From: a virus
Lineage: Duplodnaviria; Heunggongvirae; Uroviricota; Caudoviricetes
Direction: 5' to 3' (one strand)
Virus record (IMG/VR): IMGVR_UViG_2698536339_000002
Length of the DNA: 25,965 nt
Positions 1 to 25,965 of the stretch are shown piece by piece (position 1 is the first letter of the stretch; the number at the start of each line of letters is the position of its first letter). The translations under genes and the position numbers were made by a program. The notes below the pieces were generated by a model. It was not told where the DNA came from, did no database searches, and saw only the letters and a program-made list of their open reading frames with translations.

Positions 1-432
1 GTGATTCTGCTGGACTTTATGCGCAGGGAGTTAAACCTGTCTAACTCTTCAGTGCTTGGTGCCTGTCAGAAACTCCAGGAGGCTGTTGGCTTACCGAATC
101 TGGCACCGCGCTATGCCATTGATGCTCCTGCTGACGCGCCTGATGGCTCAAGTCGCCCTACGCTGTCGCTGAGTGCACTGCTGAAACAGTATGGTATCCG
201 CCTTACGGCTAATCAGGCATATCACCAGATGGCGAAGCTGGGGATCGTTGAACAACGCGAACGATACAGCCGTACCTCGATTAACAACATCAAAAAATTC
301 TGGTCGCTGACAGCGAAAGGCTGCATGTTCGGCAAGAACATCACCAGTCCCGCAAATCCGCGCGAGACGCAGCCGCACTTTTTCGAATCCCGATTCCCTG
401 AGCTGTTAAAGCTGCTCGATACCGTTCATTGA
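1..432 (+). CDS. Hypothetical phage protein, 3' portion of an ORF that runs off the window's left edge
   Basis: Open frame from position 1 (no true start in window) to stop at 430-432, immediately followed and near-overlapped by the next gene in the same orientation. No catalytic motifs recognised; function not assigned. Confidence 0.45.
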   Translation: MILLDFMRRELNLSNSSVLGACQKLQEAVGLPNLAPRYAIDAPADAPDGSSRPTLSLSALLKQYGIRLTANQAYHQMAKLGIVEQRERYSRTSINNIKKFWSLTAKGCMFGKNITSPANPRETQPHFFESRFPELLKLLDTVH

Positions 433-1793: not shown

Positions 1794-1816
1794 GGGGGAA
1801 TTACCCCCCTTTTTTT
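1794..1816 (+). terminator. Rho-independent terminator hairpin immediately after Q (possibly bidirectional)
   Basis: GGGGG (1794-1798) / AATTA loop / CCCCCC (1804-1809) followed by a 7-T run (1810-1816). The stop codon of the convergent minus-strand gene (1801-1803) lies inside the hairpin. Confidence 0.55.
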
Positions 1817-2349
1817 CTCTGTTGTTTTAATAAAATTTTAATATTTTGTCTGATTATGATGAGGCAATGTAATAAAAGAAATACCGTTAGTATTGCAAGC
1901 CATACGCAAAATAAGCATGCATATAAATTAGTTGAAAGTCCAATAGTGAATTGTGCAATTGCTGTTGTGATAGAACATAATATTGATGTATTAATAAATG
2001 AGGATAAATTGTCTAAAGGTTTATAAAGTACACTATCATTGATTTTGTCAATAGGTATACCAGTGGCAATGCTATAAATTTCCTTATATTCCTGAGTTGC
2101 AAAAACCTTATCGCGTAAATTTATTATGACAAAGGTATGCAGGCTCAATAAAAATGAACCCACGGAAATAAAACCGGAGAAGAGATAGCCTCGTAAGTTT
2201 TTATGATAAAAATCAAAAAAGTTAACACTTACTTTAGGTGTGTTTCTGTACAATAGGTAAAGTGCAAGCAATGCCAGGATCGAGAATGCAAGCAGTGTAA
2301 TGTACTGATACCTCAATCTTTTATTTATTAGCCATTCATATAAAGGCAT
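1801..2349 (-). CDS. Hypothetical integral membrane protein (about 4 predicted TM helices), second gene of AT-rich cassette
   Basis: 182-aa ORF with four long hydrophobic stretches (approx. residues 16-34, 55-79, 117-138, 141-167) and a basic C-terminus (KQQRKKGG). Start overlaps the upstream gene's end by 14 nt. Very AT-rich codon usage, unlike the flanking phage genes. Confidence 0.6.
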   Translation of the reverse strand: MPLYEWLINKRLRYQYITLLAFSILALLALYLLYRNTPKVSVNFFDFYHKNLRGYLFSGFISVGSFLLSLHTFVIINLRDKVFATQEYKEIYSIATGIPIDKINDSVLYKPLDNLSSFINTSILCSITTAIAQFTIGLSTNLYACLFCVWLAILTVFLLLHCLIIIRQNIKILLKQQRKKGG

Positions 2350-3262
2350 TTTTATTCGTCCCGTTCAGCATTTCTTCTTTTATCATATCAAAAACAGGGT
2401 TTGTTGTATAATTATCGTTTGTCAATCCATTGACTTTATCGGCAATTATATCGAAATCGTATGTTTCAAAAAAAACAGGGCAGTTCATAAAATCAATGGT
2501 TTTTTCTATTCCTGCATGGTTTACTGCAATAACCTGTGCTTTAGCAACTCCACTCATAGAATTATAAATATTTGAAAGATTCTGAGATAGTTGTTGCACT
2601 TTTGTTCTGTCGCTAGAATTAAAATTCATATCTATTGTGGTGGTGTTAACAAATTGTTCAAGCGCAGTCATTGGCCCACCTTTAAAATCTATATAATTAA
2701 ATTTAAAGCTTGTGCTTTTAATCTCTTTGAATTGACATAAAACACTCTGAATGTTGTTTTTATTTGTCATAAGGCTGAAAGTCAGTCTTTCTTTGTATTT
2801 TTTATTTATTGCAGTTACTTCTTTTTGTTTTGGTTTATCTCCAAGTTTTTTTATTTCTTCTTTATTTTGATTTCTGATAAATTCATTACTTATTGTTTCT
2901 AAATGAGAAAAGAGAGTGTTCAGGCTGCATGAACCGTGGTGATACATATAGAGACCAGAAAGATTAGATTTTTTAATTAAGAAAAAGTTGAAATTAGCAA
3001 GTTTGTCACTTCCTTGAAGATCTTCAATTTTAAGCTGGAATTTACCATCAACAAATTGCGACTTACAGTTCTTTTTTTGGTTTCTGAATGTGACAACTAA
3101 TCCATAATAGAAATCATTCACATCCGAAATGAGAATTTTACGAGTATAGTCTGTGCGACTGTGTTCTCTGTTTGATGCGTTGATAAAAGCATTCATTACG
3201 TCAACGGTATTAATATTTTTGTTATTGTTATTTATTGTAAATCCTATGCTTCTAACTTTCAT
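2336..3262 (-). CDS. Hypothetical soluble protein (308 aa), first gene of AT-rich cassette; no recognisable motifs
   Basis: Long uninterrupted minus-strand ORF in a strongly AT-rich segment, rich in Asn/Lys/Ile. No Walker A, HxH, DPPY or other signature seen by eye. Overlaps the downstream membrane gene by 14 nt, suggesting an operon. Confidence 0.6.
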   Translation of the reverse strand: MKVRSIGFTINNNNKNINTVDVMNAFINASNREHSRTDYTRKILISDVNDFYYGLVVTFRNQKKNCKSQFVDGKFQLKIEDLQGSDKLANFNFFLIKKSNLSGLYMYHHGSCSLNTLFSHLETISNEFIRNQNKEEIKKLGDKPKQKEVTAINKKYKERLTFSLMTNKNNIQSVLCQFKEIKSTSFKFNYIDFKGGPMTALEQFVNTTTIDMNFNSSDRTKVQQLSQNLSNIYNSMSGVAKAQVIAVNHAGIEKTIDFMNCPVFFETYDFDIIADKVNGLTNDNYTTNPVFDMIKEEMLNGTNKNAFI

Positions 3263-3384
3263 GTGTATTCCAGGACCGACTAAAGATAGCGAGAATGGGG
3301 ACGCATAGTTTATAAAAATCCTAACGCGTACGCAAAAAGTATTATATCGTGTTAAGAGTGGTTACTTCGCCACACAACTTAAAC

Positions 3385-3405
3385 CCGCCGCTGAGCGGTT
3401 TTTTT
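3385..3405 (+). terminator. Candidate rho-independent terminator (possible tR'-like element)
   Basis: Short GC stem CCGC/GCGG with TGA loop (3388-3398) followed by T7 (3399-3405). The stem is short, so strength is uncertain. Confidence 0.35.
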
Positions 3406-3503
3406 GTACCTGTAAACCAGGTGCAGTACAGTAAACACGCTGGTGGTCGTGAATACTGGCTTTTTATCTTGCTGGCTTTTTAGACAAGAGTTATTGGTAT
3501 GTC

Positions 3504-3731
3504 ATGTTAACCAGAAGGGAAAAAGACATGCTAAAACAGCAAGATATGACAGAAACCGCCGCCGCAGTCCTTCATTTCTTACCTGCTGACAAGTGGGTAA
3601 CGCCACGCATGATGACGAGAACTACCGGAGTAAGCGAAGCCCGGTGCCAGTTAATACTGACTCAGTTAGTTCTGGCGGGTCTGGCGAAGGATAACGGCGG
3701 GTACGGGAATAAATTCAGACGCTGCCAGTAA
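3504..3731 (+). CDS. Small hypothetical protein, possible DNA-binding regulator
   Basis: 75-aa ORF. An internal ATG at 3528 has a better Shine-Dalgarno (AAGGGAAAAAGAC-ATG), so the true product may be 67 aa. Size and charge pattern resemble small winged-helix regulators, but this is not verified. Confidence 0.4.
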   Translation: MLTRREKDMLKQQDMTETAAAVLHFLPADKWVTPRMMTRTTGVSEARCQLILTQLVLAGLAKDNGGYGNKFRRCQ

Positions 3732-3881
3732 TGGCGGTTTCCTGCTGTGAAAATGGGCGGCTGGTGGGTGTTGGTAGCACCTGCCAGCCATTCGCTCATG
3801 CCTACTGGTCACAAGCGAACCACGGCCCACTGCTTTAGCGCAAAAGCAGAGTGAGCCTACCAGAGTTACGCTTACTGATCC

Positions 3882-4934
3882 ATGAAAAATACTGTAAAAA
3901 TAAACAGTGTTGATTTAATCAACGCTGATTGCCTGCATTTTATTCAGTCCCTGCCTGATGATTCCATTGACCTGATTGTTACCGATCCGCCGTACTTCAA
4001 GGTGAAACCCAACGGCTGGGACAATCAGTGGAAAGGGGACGAAGATTACCTTAAGTGGCTGGACCACTGTCTGGCCCAGTTCTGGCGGGTGTTAAAACCT
4101 GCCGGAAGCCTTTACCTGTTCTGTGGGCATCGCCTGGCATCTGATATTGAGATCATGATGCGTGAACGTTTCAACGTGCTTAACCATATCATCTGGGCGA
4201 AGCCGTCCGGACGTTGGAATGGGTGTAATAAAGAAAGTCTGCGCGCATATTTTCCTGCCACAGAGCGCGTTCTGTTTGCTGAACATTACCAGGGACCATA
4301 TCGCGGCAAAAGTGACGGCTATGCGGCAAAAGAAAGGGAACTCAAACAGCACATAATGGCACCGCTGATATCGTATTTCAGGGATGCTCGTGCCGAACTG
4401 GGTATAACGGCAAAACAAATTGCCGAAGCCACAGGTAAGAAAAATATGGTTTCCCACTGGTTTGGTGCCAGTCAGTGGCAGTTGCCGAATGAGGCTGACT
4501 ATCGGAAGTTACAGGCACTGTTTTCCCGTATAGCGGCAGAGAAGTTTCAGGAACAACAACTGGAACAACCACACCACCAGCTGGTGGCATCTTATGATTC
4601 ACTGAATCGTAAATATTCTGAATTGCTGGATGAGTTTAAATCTCTCCGGCGCTATTTCTCCGTATCAGTCTCCGTGCCTTATACCGATGTCTGGATGCAT
4701 AAACCCGTTCAGTTCTACCCGGGGAAACATCCGTGTGAGAAACCGGCGGATATGCTCAGGCAAATAATCAATGCCAGTAGTCGACCAGGTGATCTGGTTG
4801 CTGATTTTTTTATGGGATCCGGTTCCACAATAAAAGCAGCAATGGCGCTGGGGCGTCGGGCCTTAGGTGTTGAGCTTGAGTCAGAGCGGTTTAATCAGAC
4901 AGTGAAAGAGATAAACGAGCTGGTGGGGAAATAA
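3882..4934 (+). CDS. Orphan DNA methyltransferase, beta-class amino-MTase (N6-adenine or N4-cytosine)
   Basis: Catalytic motif IV DPPY (LIVTDPPYF) lies near the N-terminus and the AdoMet-binding motif I (DFFMGSGST) near the C-terminus. This IV-then-I order defines beta-class amino-methyltransferases. No adjacent restriction endonuclease candidate. Confidence 0.85.
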
Positions 4935-6689: not shown

Positions 6690-6890
6690 ATGACCCCAGC
6701 TGAGTTCTACGATGTTTACAATATCAAACCGGCAGAAATGTTGACTGGTGAAACTGTTAACAACTTCGCTTCTCGTGTAATGGCACAGCAAACTAGTACG
6801 AGTGGAAACACAGGTGTTTGGTACTCACAAGGTACCGCTACACAATCGAAGCAAAACCAAACTACAAGTCATCAACTTTACACGTACTGA
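6690..6890 (+). CDS. Small hypothetical protein (66 aa), first gene of a two-gene accessory insert
   Basis: ATG with AAGGA Shine-Dalgarno 8-9 nt upstream. Product has a Gln/Thr/Ser-rich C-terminal half. Separated from the next gene by only 3 nt. Confidence 0.45.
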   Translation: MTPAEFYDVYNIKPAEMLTGETVNNFASRVMAQQTSTSGNTGVWYSQGTATQSKQNQTTSHQLYTY

Positions 6891-6893
6891 TTT

Positions 6894-7796
6894 ATGCCTA
6901 ATTGGAGCGACGTACTGGGCGAGATAACGGCTCTCGCCCATAAAAGTCCTATGGATGAGGTTCGCCGTAAATACTTATCTCAACTTTCGAATCATACTGG
7001 AAGAAATGTAATCACATATTACTCAGGGTGGTTACAGCATGGTGGTGCAGAAGTACGCCATCTTACTCAGATGACTGATGATGATAAGAACGGGTTGATG
7101 ACAGCCATCAATGGTTTAGATGTATCAAAAGGGTTGGATTTGATACTTCATACTCCAGGTGGTGATATTGCCGCTTTGGAATCAATCGGGCATTACTTAA
7201 GGTCGAAGTTTGGAACTAACATCAGAGCAATTGTTCCTATGATTTCAATGTCCTGCGGAACTATGCTTGCATGTTGTGCCAATGAAATCATCATGGGTAA
7301 ACAGTCCAACATTGGCCCAATTGATCCTCAGTTCAACGGTTTCTCCACCCATGCCATCATTGAAGAATGGAATCGTGCGCAGACGGAAATTTTTCAAAAT
7401 CCCGCAGCTGTTCAGATGTGGCAGTTCATTCTTCAAAAGCTAAACCCGACGATCATCGGCGAGTGTGAGAAAGCAATCAAATGGGCAAATGAGATTGTTA
7501 AGCATTGGCTTATGACAGGCATGTTTGATAATGATCCTGAGGCAGAATCAAAAGCAACACATGTTTGTTCAGAGTTAAACAACCATCACACAACCTATAC
7601 CCACTCGCGTCATATTCATTTTGATAAGGCGCAGAAAATTGGGTTGAATGTTACCGAACTTGAAAGTGATCAAGTACTTCAAGATTTGGTTTTGACTATA
7701 CATCACAGCTACATGCATTCTTTTGGTGGAGCACCACTGGCAAAAATCATTGAAAATCATAACGGTAACGCAATGATTTGGAATATCCAGTCTTAA
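6894..7796 (+). CDS. ClpP-fold serine peptidase (SDH / S49-like family), accessory (non-capsid) protease
   Basis: 300-aa product with the ClpP/crotonase-fold peptidase signature LHTPGGD and downstream PMISMSCGTMLACCANE (candidate nucleophile Ser). Lower G+C than the structural genes. Sits between spanins and cos, the slot lambda uses for bor. Confidence 0.65.
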   Translation: MPNWSDVLGEITALAHKSPMDEVRRKYLSQLSNHTGRNVITYYSGWLQHGGAEVRHLTQMTDDDKNGLMTAINGLDVSKGLDLILHTPGGDIAALESIGHYLRSKFGTNIRAIVPMISMSCGTMLACCANEIIMGKQSNIGPIDPQFNGFSTHAIIEEWNRAQTEIFQNPAAVQMWQFILQKLNPTIIGECEKAIKWANEIVKHWLMTGMFDNDPEAESKATHVCSELNNHHTTYTHSRHIHFDKAQKIGLNVTELESDQVLQDLVLTIHHSYMHSFGGAPLAKIIENHNGNAMIWNIQS

Positions 7797-7813
7797 TCCC
7801 CCCTGTCTGATTC

Positions 7814-7838
7814 CAGCCTCGCCTATGCGGGGCTTTTT
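7814..7838 (+). terminator. Rho-independent terminator after the peptidase gene
   Basis: GCCTCGCC / TAT / GCGGGGC imperfect hairpin followed by TTTTTT. Confidence 0.5.
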
Positions 7839-7904
7839 TACGCGTATTGCATACTCAAATCAAACTAGAGTCGTTTAGAAGAGAATTCAAAACGGCGGTC
7901 GGAC

Positions 7905-8125
7905 CTGTGTTTTCTTATGGGTCCTCCCGGCGGGGTTGCCTACCACGGGGCGGGAGCGTCGCGGAAAAAGGCTAGTTTTTGAAATTTCATTCGTCATCAC
8001 CACTACTGTAATGTATTGATATTACGGTTATTTTATTTTTATGGTGTCGATTTTGATTGTTTTTTGTTCACCACTAACACCGTTTGCCTAAAGTTGTTCG
8101 CAAGATGCATGTTTAAAACATTCTG
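7905..8125. other. cos: cos site (cosN nicking region with flanking cosB-like terminase-binding region), lambda-like
   Basis: GGGTCCTCCCGG...CCACGGGGCGGGAGCGTCGCGG aligns with my recollection of the lambda right-end/left-end junction around the 12-nt cohesive end. The predicted equivalent here is about 7948-7959. An AT-rich bendable stretch and TTCATTCGTCATCACC follow, then nu1. Lambda sequence is recalled, not aligned computationally. Confidence 0.6.
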
Positions 8126-8133
8126 GAGCGGGT

Positions 8134-8628
8134 ATGGATCGAGAGTTAAAAAATCTGACGCTGAATATCAGTCAACTGGCGGCACTGTCAGGTGTACATC
8201 GCCAGACTGCTGCGGCAAGGCTGCAAAATCTACCCGTTGCAGGGGGGCATGAAAGCAACCTCAAGCTTTATCGGGTGGTTGATATTGTGTCGGCATTTCT
8301 GGCATTGCCACCGCCGGTTGCAGAAGGCGAAATGGACGCGCATGAGCGCAAAGCCTGGTATCAGTCTGAACGTGAGCGTCTTAAGTTCGAACAGGAAACG
8401 GCACAACTCATTCCGGCCAGTGATGTCAGACGGGAGTTTGCCATCTGGGCAAAAGCGGTCGTGCAGGTGCTGGAGACATTACCGGATATTCTTGAACGTG
8501 ACTGCGGTCTGCAGCCTGCCGCTGTGAGCCGTGTTCAGTCCATTATTGATGATCTGCGCGATCAGATAGCCCTGCGGGTGACTGAAGCAGGTGCGGATGA
8601 TGAGGAGGAATTACAGCAGGAGGAGTAA
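8134..8628 (+). CDS. nu1: Terminase small subunit (gpNu1-like)
   Basis: 164-aa ORF immediately downstream of cos, with an N-terminal HTH-like segment (LNISQLAALSGVHRQTAAARL) and an acidic C-terminus. Stop overlaps the large-subunit start (TAATG). Confidence 0.8.
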   Translation: MDRELKNLTLNISQLAALSGVHRQTAAARLQNLPVAGGHESNLKLYRVVDIVSAFLALPPPVAEGEMDAHERKAWYQSERERLKFEQETAQLIPASDVRREFAIWAKAVVQVLETLPDILERDCGLQPAAVSRVQSIIDDLRDQIALRVTEAGADDEEELQQEE

Positions 8629-10730
8629 TGCTGAATCAGGAAACCGCAAAGGCAGCACGAACCGATTCAGGTTATATCCTTCGCGCACCGAGACGAATGC
8701 GGGTTGCTGATGCCGTTGCTCAGTATATGCGGGTGCCCATGGGGGCAGGGAACTCAGTCCCGTGGGATCCGCTGGTGGCACCGTATGTTATTGAGCCGAT
8801 GAACTGCCTGGCCTCGCGTGAATACGACGCAGTGATATTTGTTGGTCCGGCACGAACCGGCAAGACTATCGGCCTGATTGACGGCTGGGTGATTTACAAC
8901 GTGATTTGCGATCCTGCGGATATGCTGATCATTCAGATGACGGAGGAAAAAGCCCGCGAACACTCCAAAAAACGACTTGCCAGAACGTTTCGCGTCAGCC
9001 CGGAAGTGGTCAGTCGCCTGAGTCCGAACAAAAATGACAACAACGTTTATGACAGAACATTCCTTGCTGGCAACTACCTGAAAATCGGCTGGCCGTCAGT
9101 CAATATCATGTCCTCATCAGATTATAAATGCGTGGCGCTGACGGATTATGACCGTTTTCCGGAAGATATTGATGGCGAGGGGGATGCCTTCTCTCTTGCC
9201 TCAAAACGTACCACCACATTTATGTCCAGTGGTATGACGCTGGTGGAGAGTTCCCCCGGCAGGGATGTGAAGGATGTGAAATGGCGACGGACTTCACCGC
9301 ATGAGGCTCCACCAACCACGGGGATACTGTCGCTCTATAACCGTGGCGATCGCCGTCGCTGGTACTGGCCCTGTCCACACTGTGGTGAGTATTTTCAGCC
9401 CTGCGGCGATGTGGTTGCTGGTTTCCGTGATATTGCCGATCCCGTGCTGGCAAGTGAGGCGGCTTATATTCAGTGTCCTTCCTGTTCAGGACGGATTATG
9501 CCTGAACAAAAACGTGAGCTGAACGGACGTGGGGTCTGGTTGCGGGATGGTGAATCCATCAATGCGGATGGCAGTCGTTATGGTGATCCCCGACGCTCAC
9601 GTATTGCGTCATTCTGGATGGAGGGTCCGGCAGCTGCTTACCAGACACTCTCGCAACTCGTTTACAAACTGCTTACTGCAGAACAGGAATACGAGACAAC
9701 CGGAAGTGAAGAAACACTCAAGACGGTTATCAATACCGACTGGGGATTACCTTATCTTCCCCGCGCCAGCATGGAGCAACGAAAAAGTGAACTGCTTGAG
9801 CAGCGGGCAGAGCCAGTTCCTTCCCGCAGTGTGCCGGATGGCGTTAATTTCCTTGTGGCGACAGTGGATGTGCAGGCGGGACGTCATCGCCGTTTTGTGG
9901 TTCAGGTAACGGGCTATGGCAGTCGTGGCGAACGCTGGATTATTGATCGTTACAACATCACGCAGTCATTGCGCGGTGACAGCGACGGGGAGAGCCAGCG
10001 AATTGATCCGGCCAGCTATCCGGAAGACTGGGATGTCCTGCTGACGGATGTTTTTCATAAAAGCTGGCCGCTGGCCTCCGATCCTTCTCAACAAATGCGA
10101 CTGATGGCAATGGCGGTGGACTCCGGCGGTGAAGACGGGGTCACTGATAATGCCTATAAATTCTGGCGTCGTTGCCGTCGTGATGGCCTTGGTAAACGTA
10201 TTTACCTGTTTAAGGGCGACAGCATCCGGCGCGCAAAACTGATCACTCGTACATTCCCTGATAACACCGGACGAACGGGCCGACGGGCGCAGGCCGCAGG
10301 TGATGTGCCGCTCTGGCTTCTTCAGACGGATGCACTGAAAGACCGGGTGAATAACGCGTTATGGCGTGACTCGCCAGGTCCCGGCTATGTGCATTTCCCT
10401 GACTGGCTGGGGAGCTGGTTTTACGACGAACTGACGTATGAAGAGCGGAGCAGTGACGGGAAATGGAGTAAGCCTGGTCGCGGTGCCAACGAAGCTTTTG
10501 ACCTGATGGTGTATGCCGAGGCTCTGGTCATTCTGCATGGATACGAAAAGATCCGCTGGCCGGATGCACCGGAGTGGGCGAGCCGGGGAACCTGGCTGGA
10601 GTGTGTCCCGGACAGTACCGAACCGTCACCCACACCGGAACCGGTATCCACGCCTGTTAAAAAACAAAAACGGAAGAAAACAGTAACTGACGATGTTAAC
10701 CCCTGGCTGACTTCCGGAGGATGGTTATGA
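8628..10730 (+). CDS. A: Terminase large subunit (gpA-like)
   Basis: 700-aa ORF with Walker A (VGPARTGKT) and lambda-order position after nu1. Pro/Thr-rich C-terminal tail with a basic KKQKRKK cluster. Confidence 0.9.
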   Translation: MLNQETAKAARTDSGYILRAPRRMRVADAVAQYMRVPMGAGNSVPWDPLVAPYVIEPMNCLASREYDAVIFVGPARTGKTIGLIDGWVIYNVICDPADMLIIQMTEEKAREHSKKRLARTFRVSPEVVSRLSPNKNDNNVYDRTFLAGNYLKIGWPSVNIMSSSDYKCVALTDYDRFPEDIDGEGDAFSLASKRTTTFMSSGMTLVESSPGRDVKDVKWRRTSPHEAPPTTGILSLYNRGDRRRWYWPCPHCGEYFQPCGDVVAGFRDIADPVLASEAAYIQCPSCSGRIMPEQKRELNGRGVWLRDGESINADGSRYGDPRRSRIASFWMEGPAAAYQTLSQLVYKLLTAEQEYETTGSEETLKTVINTDWGLPYLPRASMEQRKSELLEQRAEPVPSRSVPDGVNFLVATVDVQAGRHRRFVVQVTGYGSRGERWIIDRYNITQSLRGDSDGESQRIDPASYPEDWDVLLTDVFHKSWPLASDPSQQMRLMAMAVDSGGEDGVTDNAYKFWRRCRRDGLGKRIYLFKGDSIRRAKLITRTFPDNTGRTGRRAQAAGDVPLWLLQTDALKDRVNNALWRDSPGPGYVHFPDWLGSWFYDELTYEERSSDGKWSKPGRGANEAFDLMVYAEALVILHGYEKIRWPDAPEWASRGTWLECVPDSTEPSPTPEPVSTPVKKQKRKKTVTDDVNPWLTSGGWL

Positions 10731-10939: not shown

Positions 10940-12447
10940 TGGCAATTCTTGATGATGTGATTGGCGTTTTTTCACCAGGATGGAAAGCGGCAAGGCTGCG
11001 TTCCCGTGCGGTGATCCAGGCTTATGAGGCCGTAAAAACGACGCGGACACACAAAGCCCGGCGGGAAAACCGAACTGCCGACCAGTTAAGCCAGTATGGG
11101 GCCGTGTCGTTACGTGAGCAGGCCCGTTACCTTGATAACAACCACGATCTGGTTATTGGTGTATTTGACAAGCTGGAAGAACGGGTGGTGGGGAAAAACG
11201 GGATTATTGTCGAGCCACATCCGGTATTACGCAATGGGGCCATTGCCCGTGACCTGGCTGCGGAGATTCGCACCCGATGGAGTGAATGGTCTGTCAGTCC
11301 GGAAGTCACCGGGCAGTTTACCCGTCCGATGCTGGAACGTCTGATGCTGCGTACCTGGCTGCGCGATGGTGAGGTGTTTGCCCAGATGGTTTCCGGGCGC
11401 ATAAACAGCCTGACGCCTTCTGCCGGTGTTCATTTCTGGCTGGAGGCGCTCGAGCCGGACTTTATTCCCATGACCAGTGATGAGAGCAACAGGCTGAATC
11501 AGGGCGTGTTTGTTGATGACTGGGGGCGTCCCGAAAAATATCTGGTGTATAAAAGTCGTCCTGTATCCGGACGGCAGATGGAAACCAAAGAAGTGGATGC
11601 AGAGCGAATGCTGCATCTTAAATTTGTTCGCCGTCTGCACCAGATGCGCGGGACGTCTTTATTGTCCGGTGTGCTGATCCGCCTAAGCGCTCTGAAAGAG
11701 TATGAAGATTCTGAGCTGACTGCAGCAAGGATCGCCGCTGCTCTGGGGATGTACATCCGGAAAGGCGACGGGCAGAGCTATGAACCGGATGGTAATGGCA
11801 GCAAGGAGAATGAACGCGAGCTTACCATTCAGCCAGGCATTATTTACGACGATCTGAAACCCGGCGAAGAAATCGGAATGGTGAAGTCGGATCGTCCCAA
11901 TCCTAACCTTGAAACTTTTCGTAATGGTCAGTTGCGTGCCGTGGCGGCGGGCAGTCGTCTGAGTTTTTCCAGTACGGCACGAAACTATAACGGCACTTAC
12001 AGCGCCCAGCGTCAGGAACTGGTTGAGTCTACTGATGGCTACCTGATCCTGCAGGACTGGTTTATTGGTGCCGTCACCCGCCCGATGTATCGTGCCTGGC
12101 TGAAACAGGCTGTGGCATCCGGTGTTATCAGGCTACCCCGCGATCTTGACCGTTCTTCACTGTATACCGCGGTGTATTCCGGACCGGTGATGCCGTGGAT
12201 TGACCCTGTTAAGGAGGCTGAGGCCTGGAAAATCCAGATTCGTGGTGGAGCGGCGACAGAATCAGATTGGGTACGTGCAGGTGGTCGTAATCCGGATGAT
12301 GTCAAACGTCGGCGCAAGGCCGAAATTGATGAAAACCGCAAGCTGGATCTGGTATTTGATACCGATCCGGCCAGTGATAAAGGAGGCAGCAGTGCCGCAA
12401 CGAAACGACAGGAGCCGCAGCACACCGACGACCAGTCCGAAGAATAA
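10939..12447 (+). CDS. B: Portal protein (gpB-like)
   Basis: About 502-aa ORF in lambda-order position between W and the capsid gene. The ORF-track start at 10867 is probably an over-extension; ATG 10939 is translationally coupled to W. Confidence 0.85.
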   Translation: MAILDDVIGVFSPGWKAARLRSRAVIQAYEAVKTTRTHKARRENRTADQLSQYGAVSLREQARYLDNNHDLVIGVFDKLEERVVGKNGIIVEPHPVLRNGAIARDLAAEIRTRWSEWSVSPEVTGQFTRPMLERLMLRTWLRDGEVFAQMVSGRINSLTPSAGVHFWLEALEPDFIPMTSDESNRLNQGVFVDDWGRPEKYLVYKSRPVSGRQMETKEVDAERMLHLKFVRRLHQMRGTSLLSGVLIRLSALKEYEDSELTAARIAAALGMYIRKGDGQSYEPDGNGSKENERELTIQPGIIYDDLKPGEEIGMVKSDRPNPNLETFRNGQLRAVAAGSRLSFSSTARNYNGTYSAQRQELVESTDGYLILQDWFIGAVTRPMYRAWLKQAVASGVIRLPRDLDRSSLYTAVYSGPVMPWIDPVKEAEAWKIQIRGGAATESDWVRAGGRNPDDVKRRRKAEIDENRKLDLVFDTDPASDKGGSSAATKRQEPQHTDDQSEE

Positions 12448-12460
12448 TTCCTGGTTCAGG

Positions 12461-14419
12461 ATGCAGGCTGGTCACCAGAGTGACGCGGATATTTATATTT
12501 ATGACGAGATTGGTTTCTGGGGTGTTACAGCGAAGCAGTTTATCAGTGATCTGAATGCACTGGGCGATATCACCCACATTAATCTCCATATTAATTCACC
12601 GGGTGGCGATGTCTTTGAAGGCATCGCCATTTTTAATGCGCTGAAAACACATGGTGCGTCCATTACCGTTTATGTCGACGGTGTGGCGGCATCAATGGCG
12701 TCGGTCATTGCGATGGTGGGAAACCCGGTCATTATGCCGGAAAACACCTTCATGATGATTCATAAACCATTTGGCTTTACGGGCGGTGATGCGGAGGACA
12801 TGCGCACCTATGCCGACCTGCTCGATAAAGTTGAGGCGGTTCTGTTACCCGCTTATGCACAGAAAACCGGGAAAACCACCGATGAAATTGCTGCCATGCT
12901 GGCGGATGAGACCTGGATGTCCGGTGCCGAATGTCTGGCACATGGATTTGCTGATCAGGTAACGCCAGCCGTTAAGGCAATGGCATGTATTCAGTCAAAA
13001 CGTACAGAGGAATTTAAAAAGATGCCGGAATCCATTCGAAACATGATTACTCCGCCACGCAACAGTGCTCCACGCGTACAGGATGATGAACCTGCAGCCT
13101 CCCGGACGCCAGTGCAGGCAGCAGCACCCGTGGTGGATGAAAACAGTATCCGTGCGCAGGTACTGGCAGAGCAAAAAGCGCGTGTAAACGGTATTAATGA
13201 TCTGTTTGCCATGTTTGGCGGGCGTTATCAGACGCTGCAGGCTCAGTGTCTTGCCGATCCTGAATGTTCGCTGGAGCAGGCCCGCGAAAAGTTGTTGAAC
13301 GAGATGGGGCGCGAGTCCACGCCATCCAATAAAAATACCCCGGCTCATATTTATGCCGGTAACGGTAATTTTGTGGGGGACGGGATCCGCCAGGCGCTGA
13401 TGGCGCGTGCCGGATTTGAAAAAACCGAACGTGATAATGTCTACAACGGGATGACCCTGCGTGAATATGCCCGTATGTCACTGACTGAACGGGGTATTGG
13501 GGTTTCCGGTTATAACCCGATGCAGATGGTCGGTGCGGCGTTCACACACAGTACGTCTGACTTCGGTAATATTCTGCTGGATGTTGCGAACAAAGCCATT
13601 CTGCAGGGCTGGGAAGATGCCCCTGAAACCTATGAACAGTGGACGCGGAAAGGTCAGTTGTCTGATTTTAAAATTGCCCATCGTGTGGGTATGGGGGGCT
13701 TCAGTGCTCTGCGTCAGGTGCGTGAAGGGGCGGAATATAAATACGTCACCACCGGAGATAAACAGGCCACTATTGCACTGGCGACCTATGGCGAGCTGTT
13801 CAGTATCACCCGTCAGGCCATTATCAATGATGATCTGAATATGCTGACCGATGTCCCGATGAAACTGGGCCGTGCGGCGAAATCCACTATTGCCGATCTG
13901 GTTTATGCCATTCTGACGTCTAACCCGAAAATCTCCACAGATAATGTAAGTCTGTTCGATAAAGCGAAACATGCAAACGTACTGGAGAGCGCTGCAATGG
14001 ACGTGGCATCGCTGGATAAAGCCCGCCAGTTGATGCGCGTTCAGAAAGAGGGGGAGCGTCATCTGAATATTCGTCCTGCGTTCGTACTGGTACCGACGGC
14101 GATGGAGTCTGTTGCTAACCAGGTCATTCGCTCCTCAAGTGTCAAGGGGGCTGACATTAACGCCGGTATTATTAACCCGGTGAAAGATTTTGCGACCGTT
14201 ATTGCAGAGCCTCGTCTTGATGATAACAGCCTGACCACCTTCTACCTGGCTGCGTCAAAAGGCTCCGATACGATTGAAGTGGCTTATCTCAACGGTGTGG
14301 ATACGCCATATATTGATCAGATGGAGGGCTTCAGTGTGGATGGCGTGACAACGAAAGTGCGTATTGACGCCGGTGTCGCGCCAGTTGATCACCGCGGTCT
14401 GGTGAAATGTACGGCGTAA
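12461..14419 (+). CDS. Fused head maturation protease (ClpP-like) / scaffold / major capsid protein, tripartite capsid gene
   Basis: N-terminal ClpP-fold head-protease region (GVTAKQFISDL ... INSPGGDVFEGIAIFNAL ... VAASMASVIAMVG), a Gln/Ala/Glu-rich linker, and a C-terminal capsid-like domain, all in one frame. The ORF-track start at 12200 overlaps the portal and is likely artefactual; the first in-frame ATG after the portal stop is 12461. Confidence 0.8.
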   Translation: MQAGHQSDADIYIYDEIGFWGVTAKQFISDLNALGDITHINLHINSPGGDVFEGIAIFNALKTHGASITVYVDGVAASMASVIAMVGNPVIMPENTFMMIHKPFGFTGGDAEDMRTYADLLDKVEAVLLPAYAQKTGKTTDEIAAMLADETWMSGAECLAHGFADQVTPAVKAMACIQSKRTEEFKKMPESIRNMITPPRNSAPRVQDDEPAASRTPVQAAAPVVDENSIRAQVLAEQKARVNGINDLFAMFGGRYQTLQAQCLADPECSLEQAREKLLNEMGRESTPSNKNTPAHIYAGNGNFVGDGIRQALMARAGFEKTERDNVYNGMTLREYARMSLTERGIGVSGYNPMQMVGAAFTHSTSDFGNILLDVANKAILQGWEDAPETYEQWTRKGQLSDFKIAHRVGMGGFSALRQVREGAEYKYVTTGDKQATIALATYGELFSITRQAIINDDLNMLTDVPMKLGRAAKSTIADLVYAILTSNPKISTDNVSLFDKAKHANVLESAAMDVASLDKARQLMRVQKEGERHLNIRPAFVLVPTAMESVANQVIRSSSVKGADINAGIINPVKDFATVIAEPRLDDNSLTTFYLAASKGSDTIEVAYLNGVDTPYIDQMEGFSVDGVTTKVRIDAGVAPVDHRGLVKCTA

Positions 14420-23022: not shown

Positions 23023-23050
23023 AAACCGCCTCCGGGCGGTTTTGTCGTTT
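23023..23050 (+). terminator. Candidate hairpin / weak terminator between I and J
   Basis: AACCGCC / TCCG / GGCGGTT stem-loop followed by an interrupted T-tract (TTTGTCGTTT). Confidence 0.35.
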
Positions 23051-23061
23051 ATGGAGCGTGA

Positions 23062-25965
<2,904 letters not shown>

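Follow-up and report, generated by a model that had tools for sequence, protein, structure and literature searches.

The window, by which we mean the whole 25,965-bp stretch of DNA that was analysed, shares 98.7% identity over 25 kb with a prophage integrated at tRNA-Thr, beside proA, in E. coli 120899 and others, and the prophage in strain 120899 extends from the integrase gene to the tail fibre gene. Genes for a Q-like antiterminator, a DNA methylase, a holin, a lysozyme, Rz and an SDH-type protease lie upstream of a candidate cos site, and those for the terminase, the portal, a ClpP-protease/capsid fusion, tail proteins, the tape measure and J lie downstream. The features of this region are as follows, with bp numbers counted from the first overhang base (7948 = bp 1).

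1432–1788: Q-like antiterminator gene, upstream of cos
7919–7925, plus strand: cosQ heptamer GGGTCCT (packaging-termination signal), identical to that of lambda and in the equivalent place relative to cosN
7926–7945, plus strand: cosQ-cosN spacer, moderately variable among relatives, with CCGG(Y)G common to lambda
7946–7961, no strand assigned: cosN, 16-bp nicking site (12-bp cohesive-end sequence with CG on each side), CG/GGGCGGGAGCGT/CG compared with CG/GGGCGGCGACCT/CG in lambda
7948–7959, plus strand: predicted 12-nt 5' cohesive end GGGCGGGAGCGT, the left end of virion DNA by homology to the ends of cdtI, Tritos and LLS
7960–7995, plus strand: cosN-R3 segment, at the position of lambda I2, containing an A5-GGCTAG-T5 palindrome and invariant in 45 same-type variants
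7996–8004 (bp 49–57), plus strand: R3, putative TerS repeat ATCACCACT, a motif match that 9 of 10 HRQT-helix relatives also have at bp 46–49 (plus strand)
8009–8021 (bp 62), minus strand: I1, predicted IHF site TATCAATACATTA, a perfect consensus between R3 and R2
8043–8051 (bp 96–104), minus strand: R2, putative inverted TerS repeat ATCGACACC, a motif match with an inverted copy at bp 95–98 in 9 of 10 relatives
8067–8075 (bp 120–128), plus strand: R1, putative direct TerS repeat TTCACCACT, with a direct copy at bp 118–122 in all 10 HRQT-helix relatives
8134–8628, plus strand: TerS, Pfam DUF1441 / phrog_141 (PF07278, 2.7e-41; phrog_141, 7e-74)
8628–10730, plus strand: TerL, gpA family, predicted cosN-nicking nuclease (GpA_ATPase PF05876, 9e-72; GpA_nuclease PF20454, 1e-85)

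The sequence-only reading had placed a lambda-like cohesive-end region here, and both of the strings it quoted were found: GGGTCCT at 7919–7925 followed by CCCGG, and GGGCGGGAGCGT at 7948–7959 followed by CGCGG. When aligned with the joined ends of lambda (GGGTCCT-N23-ACG/GGGCGGCGACCT/CGCGGG), the window sequence (GGGTCCT-N22-ACG/GGGCGGGAGCGT/CGCGGA) was identical in cosQ, in the CG dinucleotides flanking the nicks and in bp 1–6 of the overhang. The site is therefore as claimed, but the term cohesive-end region does not fit the GGGTCCT string, which is the cosQ heptamer and lies outside the cohesive end. The overhang matches that of lambda at 8 of 12 positions. Differences at several positions had been suggested in the sequence-only reading; there are exactly four, at bp 7, 8, 9 and 11, all in the right half. 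Rotational symmetry involves 8 of 16 bp of the window cosN and 12 of 22 bp when wider flanks are included, compared with 10 and 10 in lambda. The fall into an AT-rich segment after cosN was likewise confirmed, with G+C dropping from 67% at 7900–7959 to 27–37% at 7960–8109.

In lambda-like phages, cosN is flanked by conserved CG dinucleotides and cosQ is a highly conserved 7-bp site (PMC4669245). Gifsy-1, which is lambda-like and has a complex cosB, has a cosN that differs from that of lambda at positions 8, 9 and 11 (PMC4669245). The variation in the window cosN fits this literature, with no change in cosQ, the left half or the flanks and freedom at bp 7–12 (PMC4669245). The sequence features of lambda-like cos phages sensu Feiss et al. 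were found, namely identity in the left half of the 12-mer, the CG flanks and a 7-bp cosQ upstream of cosN, as were those of a complex cosB (R3-I1-R2-R1), with three related repeats of which R2 is inverted, an IHF consensus between R3 and R2, and R3 located ~47–50 bp from the nick. A search of the literature with the 12-mer GGGCGGGAGCGT returned unrelated eukaryotic papers only.

The conserved packaging module has cosQ as its left boundary, and the homology of all related deposited phages begins exactly at 7919. To the left of cosQ, the sequence varies among the 45 same-type relatives and is unrelated in deposited phage genomes. To the right, the first ~22 bp past cosN (CGCGGAAAAAGGCTAGTTTTTG) are common to all four cosB types that carry the window cosN. 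Lambda I2 has been reported to be necessary for termination (PMC4669245), and the segment common to the four cosB types (cosQ to ~22 bp past the nick), judged by its sequence, matches the lambda termination module of cosQ, cosN and I2.

Three further observations concern cosQ and cosN in related phages. A palindromic ATAATCATTATCA-like element is located ~10–25 nt left of cosQ in lambda, cdtI, phi458 and mEp043; the window, PhiR47_1 and HannyBb lack it. The interval between ACG and CGCGG is GGGCGGGCGGG (11 bp) in VT1-Sakai and GGGCGGGCGG (10 bp) in CP-1639 rather than 12 bp, and might mean that the overhang has another length or that the cos is defective. The phages yong2 and Chris1, which have a DUF1441 TerS, carry a cosQ-like AGGTACT or GGGTCCT and a cosN of the form CCGAGGGGGC(A/G)..GACA/CGCGG, the left half of which deviates from the otherwise fixed GGGCGG.

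The cosB repeats were examined using the motif WTCRHCAYY, which was derived from a cos-region comparison of about a dozen phages that share the TerS family of the window. A generic repeat finder gave a 9-bp direct repeat only, and the inverted R2 was found through comparison with relatives. The exact 9-mer TCACCACTA occurs at only two places in the window (7997–8005 and 8068–8076), an additional motif copy (TTCGTCATC, 7990–7998) overlaps R3, and the R2 core GTGTCGAT is conserved in the 45 variants. There are four motif matches in 86 bp of cosB versus 21 in the other 25.9 kb, an enrichment that is partly circular as the motif was derived from the same sequences. The positions and orientations of R3, R2 and R1 recur in phi458, CP-1639, VT1-Sakai, mEp043, LLS, Eeyore, Kp4865-4 and Fels-1, and this recurrence across divergent phages is a stronger argument for the R sites than the enrichment. 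In PhiR47_1, a strict match was found at R1 only.

The WTCRHCAYY repeats were absent from the scanned cos regions of cdtI, HannyBb, PSTCR8lys and lambda. In the non-lambda phages without the motif, the putative TerS recognition helix is HRDTVKKRL or NRGTVKKRL, and in motif carriers it is HRQT(V/A)AARL. As the putative recognition helix differs wherever the motif is absent, the repeat and the TerS protein change together.

The IHF consensus WATCAANNNNTTR has a single exact match in the 25,965-bp window, at 8009–8021. Its specified bases are invariant in 45 distinct same-type variants except for one rare variant at 8019, and the main variation (8013–8014) is confined to the NNNN positions. The same consensus was found at bp 61–64 on the minus strand in phi458, CP-1639, cdtI, HannyBb and PSTCR8lys; in several of the relatives scanned, a perfect match is missing. 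In most same-type IMG/VR relatives, a 10-bp inverted repeat, CCACTGTAAT-N8-ATTACAGTGG, is centred on the IHF core (8000–8032 in the window), and the right arm in the window is ATTACGGTTA, with three substitutions relative to the common form. Promoter-like matches, at consensus level only, were also seen inside cosB. The block between R1 and terS (8080–8133, GTTGTTCGCAAGATGCATGTTTAAAAC...) is near-invariant in the 45 variants, is kept in the PhiR47 type and contains an imperfect palindrome around ATGCAT; it is possibly an extra contact for terminase or IHF, or a translational signal.

Complex cosB sites are known for lambda, 21, phi80 and Gifsy-1, and R2 is inverted in them (PMC4669245; PMC9026076). 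In lambda, R3 occupies bp 50–65 and the ATG is at bp 191 (PMC9026076), and the terS ATG in the window is at bp 187. The order, orientation and spacing of the sub-sites are thus like those of lambda (R3 at ~bp 50, IHF between R3 and R2, R2 inverted, ATG at ~bp 190), whereas the WTCRHCAYY repeats are unrelated to the 16-bp R sequence of lambda and the cosQ-cosN spacer is 22 nt instead of 23.

The gene immediately downstream, which the sequence-only reading had called nu1, was found to encode a terminase small subunit as proposed, but not a member of the Phage_Nu1 family, since a Pfam search gives DUF1441 alone and BLASTP detected no similarity between this TerS and Nu1 (E=20). However, reciprocal cross-matches were obtained between PHROG families (TerS to phrog_57, the family of lambda Nu1, 8e-10; Nu1 to phrog_141, 6e-8), and hhalign of a profile of 14 TerS relatives against Nu1 gave a collinear alignment of 140 columns including the HTH, with an E-value of 0.0015 and a probability of only 17%. 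In this alignment, the HTH-like segment of TerS (residues 9–30), which includes a putative recognition helix at approximately residues 21–30 (VHRQTAAARL), is aligned with the HTH of Nu1. Based on the cross-matches and the collinear alignment, TerS is read as a remote, collinear homologue of Nu1 that is outside the Nu1 family at the Pfam level, and it is predicted to work like Nu1. A search of the PDB with the TerS sequence gave no meaningful match. The isolated phages phi458, Ayreon and 569R4 have a TerS that is 100% identical to this protein.

The TerL belongs to the gpA family, which is typical of 5'-cos packagers, and shares 25% identity with lambda gpA and 88% with TerL of cdtI. The identity with cdtI is unevenly distributed, as the nuclease half (residues 380–700) is ~99% identical and the N-terminal part is about three-quarters identical (by eye). 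The TerS proteins of the window and cdtI share 42% identity, with far better conservation in the C-terminal half than in the DNA-binding N-terminus. This pattern suggests that there are recombination joints inside the terminase module.

The ends of deposited phage genomes were compared with the predicted cohesive end. The first base in the records of cdtI (GenBank accession number AB285204) and Tritos (OV696610) corresponds to 7948, both records open with the identical 12-mer, GGGCGGGAGCGT, and their right ends read ...GGGTCCT-N22...CCACG. Bases 1–12 of the LLS record (PQ299149) are annotated as '5' extended single-strand cohesive site GGGCGGCGCGCT' and are homologous to window 7948–7959, and this record ends in ...GGGTCCT...CCACG. 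The record of Hafnia phage yong2 starts at CGCGGG, right after the predicted bottom-strand nick, and that of mEp460_4F5 starts at the equivalent of 7943, 5 nt left of the predicted top-strand nick. Tritos is a plaque-forming siphovirus, and its paper includes no end mapping (PMC9928086). For Ayreon, the authors predicted cos packaging only and let the genome start at terS (PMC5764929); both the mEp460 and the Ayreon record have terS as an arbitrary starting point. The records examined from the mEp460/Ayreon/phi458 group assign no location to the cos of their cosB type.

The relationships between the window and the phages named above differ from one part of the packaging region to another. The cos regions of mEp460, Ayreon and phi458 are of the same cosB type (94–96% identical) and their TerS proteins are 99–100% identical to that in the window, whereas the cargo upstream of cosQ is different. 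In cdtI and Tritos, cosQ, the 12-mer, its flanks and the first ~22 bp after cosN are identical to those in the window and the nuclease half of TerL is ~99% identical, but cosB is of another type that includes no WTCRHCAYY repeats, and the TerS carries the helix HRDTVKKRL. LLS, mEp043 and mEp213, together with Gifsy-2 and Fels-1, share the TerS family (40–58% identical, 58% in LLS) and the R3/R2/R1 motif at the same distances. However, the overhangs of LLS and Fels-1 (GGGCGGCAGCGG in Fels-1) have another right half, and the LLS group has a shorter cosB, with R1 directly next to the ATG at bp 130.

Taken together, these findings indicate, with a probability of about 90%, that window 7919–8077 is a lambda-type cos site, laid out as cosQ-cosN-(I2)-cosB, in an E. 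coli lambdoid prophage of the mEp460/Ayreon-like kind. The site adds another example to the well-studied class of lambda-like cos sites, and its cosN allele is one with which deposited phage genomes already begin. The nick positions and the binding of TerS and IHF are predicted by homology with lambda. As the left end of the virion DNA would begin at 7948 and the right end would finish at 7947, the predicted virion map runs terminase-head-tail ... Q-lysis-cargo, with both ends inside the window. That the window spans both ends of the map had been proposed in the sequence-only reading, and the Q-like antiterminator and lysis genes upstream and the terminase, head and tail genes downstream agree with this.

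By homology with lambda, the DUF1441-type TerS would bind the three 9-bp repeats R3 (plus), R2 (minus) and R1 (plus) via its N-terminal helix-turn-helix. IHF would bend the DNA between R3 and R2 such that these two repeats face a TerS dimer, with R1 having an accessory role. TerS on R3 and R2 would then anchor the gpA-type TerL on cosN, ~47 bp away, and TerL would introduce nicks 12 bp apart, at ACG/GGG in the top strand and after ...GCGT/CG in the bottom strand. The predicted product is virion DNA with 5' overhangs of GGGCGGGAGCGT, a left end at 7948 and a right end at 7947 (top strand), and the ligated junction of the virion ends would read ...CCACGGGGCGGGAGCGTCGCGG. At the next cos of the concatemer, cosQ, cosN and the adjacent conserved segment would stop packaging.

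Three alternatives to a functional cos site with these ends were considered. The resemblance to lambda could be fortuitous in a G+C-rich sequence, with headful packaging from a pac site elsewhere, but no support for this was found. A single occurrence of the composite pattern GGGTCCT-N(18–26)-CGGGGCGG-N6-CG was found in the window and none in 100 dinucleotide-preserving shuffles, and an exact 20-mer around the nick is present in at least 120 IMG/VR viral contigs, upstream of a terS in each case analysed. The gpA family membership of TerL and the cohesive end annotated in LLS also argue against headful packaging, and this explanation is effectively refuted. A match to part of the cos region was found in 2124 of 5426 complete E. 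coli genomes.

It is also conceivable, though improbable, that the cos is an intact-looking relic in a defective prophage, and that virion ends are never made. E. coli lambdoid prophages are often cryptic, and the inverted repeat at the IHF core has three right-arm substitutions, which could count in favour of a relic. However, the live phages phi458 and Ayreon have a TerS of identical sequence, every cos sub-site is intact, the ORFs for terminase, portal, capsid and tail proteins have their full length, and the prophage in strain 120899 spans integrase to tail fibre. Rather less probable still is a genuine lambda-type cos in which the nicks are slightly shifted or the overhang differs in length from the lambda-based prediction. 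The start of the mEp460_4F5 record at 7943, the 11-bp and 10-bp intervals in VT1-Sakai and CP-1639, the divergent left half in yong2 and Chris1 and the low identity of TerL to lambda gpA are in favour of such a shift. Against it, both CG flanks and bp 1–6 are the same as in lambda, the predicted base is the first one in the cdtI, Tritos and LLS records, a 12-nt 5' extension is annotated in LLS, and the yong2 record begins just past the predicted bottom-strand nick. The reading of the site as a lambda-type cos with ends at 7947/7948 is therefore preferred.

The differences in the overhang, although real, are not expected to have the effect on cross-packaging with lambda terminase that was suggested by the sequence-only reading, as published genetics place specificity in the interaction of TerS with cosB. 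Natural and engineered changes at cosN bp 7–12, such as lambda C11G and the cosN of N15, had no measurable effect on cos cleavage (PMC4669245). Lambda and 21 do not differ in cosQ and cosN, yet discriminate more than 10^3-fold through TerS-cosB (PMC4669245). As the R repeats in the window are unrelated to those of lambda and specificity resides in TerS-cosB, the expected barrier to lambda terminase is cosB and not the overhang. Mismatched ends would matter for hybrid chromosomes only. Packaging is expected for helper phages or islands that have this cosB type, and lambda should be excluded by cosB.

The arrangement of shared and unshared segments raises a further interpretation, which we regard as evenly balanced between right and wrong. 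The cosQ-cosN-I2 segment and the nuclease half of TerL would circulate as one unit that has been recombined with at least four cosB and TerS DNA-binding modules, and the pairing of a DUF1441 TerS with WTCRHCAYY would represent a distinct packaging specificity, parallel to those of lambda, 21 and N15. In this interpretation, the joints may be ~22–30 bp right of the nick and inside terL. If it is correct, the DUF1441 TerS/WTCRHCAYY pairing could be used to examine the way in which TerS anchoring determines where a TerL with only 25% identity to gpA nicks the DNA. The interest of the site is otherwise mainly in annotation, as it sets where the virion map begins, both in this prophage and in the mEp460/Ayreon/phi458 group, and supplies primers and targets for end-mapping.

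Several observations were made in the remainder of the window. The interval between Rz and cosQ includes a small ORF (6690–6890), a gene for an SDH-family ClpP-like serine protease (6894–7796; PF01972) and a terminator-like hairpin (7815–7834). As the homology of relatives is lost left of 7919, the 6690–7840 region resembles a slot for cargo ('morons') at the virion map's right end. The interval between Q and the holin gene contains two minus-strand ORFs, 1801–2349 (no family match) and 2336–3262 (phrog_2802, function unknown), and the DNA methylase gene (3882–4934). In Stx phages, the toxin genes sit between Q and holin, a position equivalent to 1801–4934.

The minus-strand ORFs at 23049–25877 were considered as a sign of a disrupted tail region or defective prophage, and this was rejected, as they have no Pfam matches and the region aligns to gpJ running off the end of the window. 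In one long ORF at 12200–14419, a ClpP-like prohead protease is joined to the major capsid protein (PF00574 and PF25209), and this protease-capsid fusion is annotated in the same way in the RefSeq prophage.
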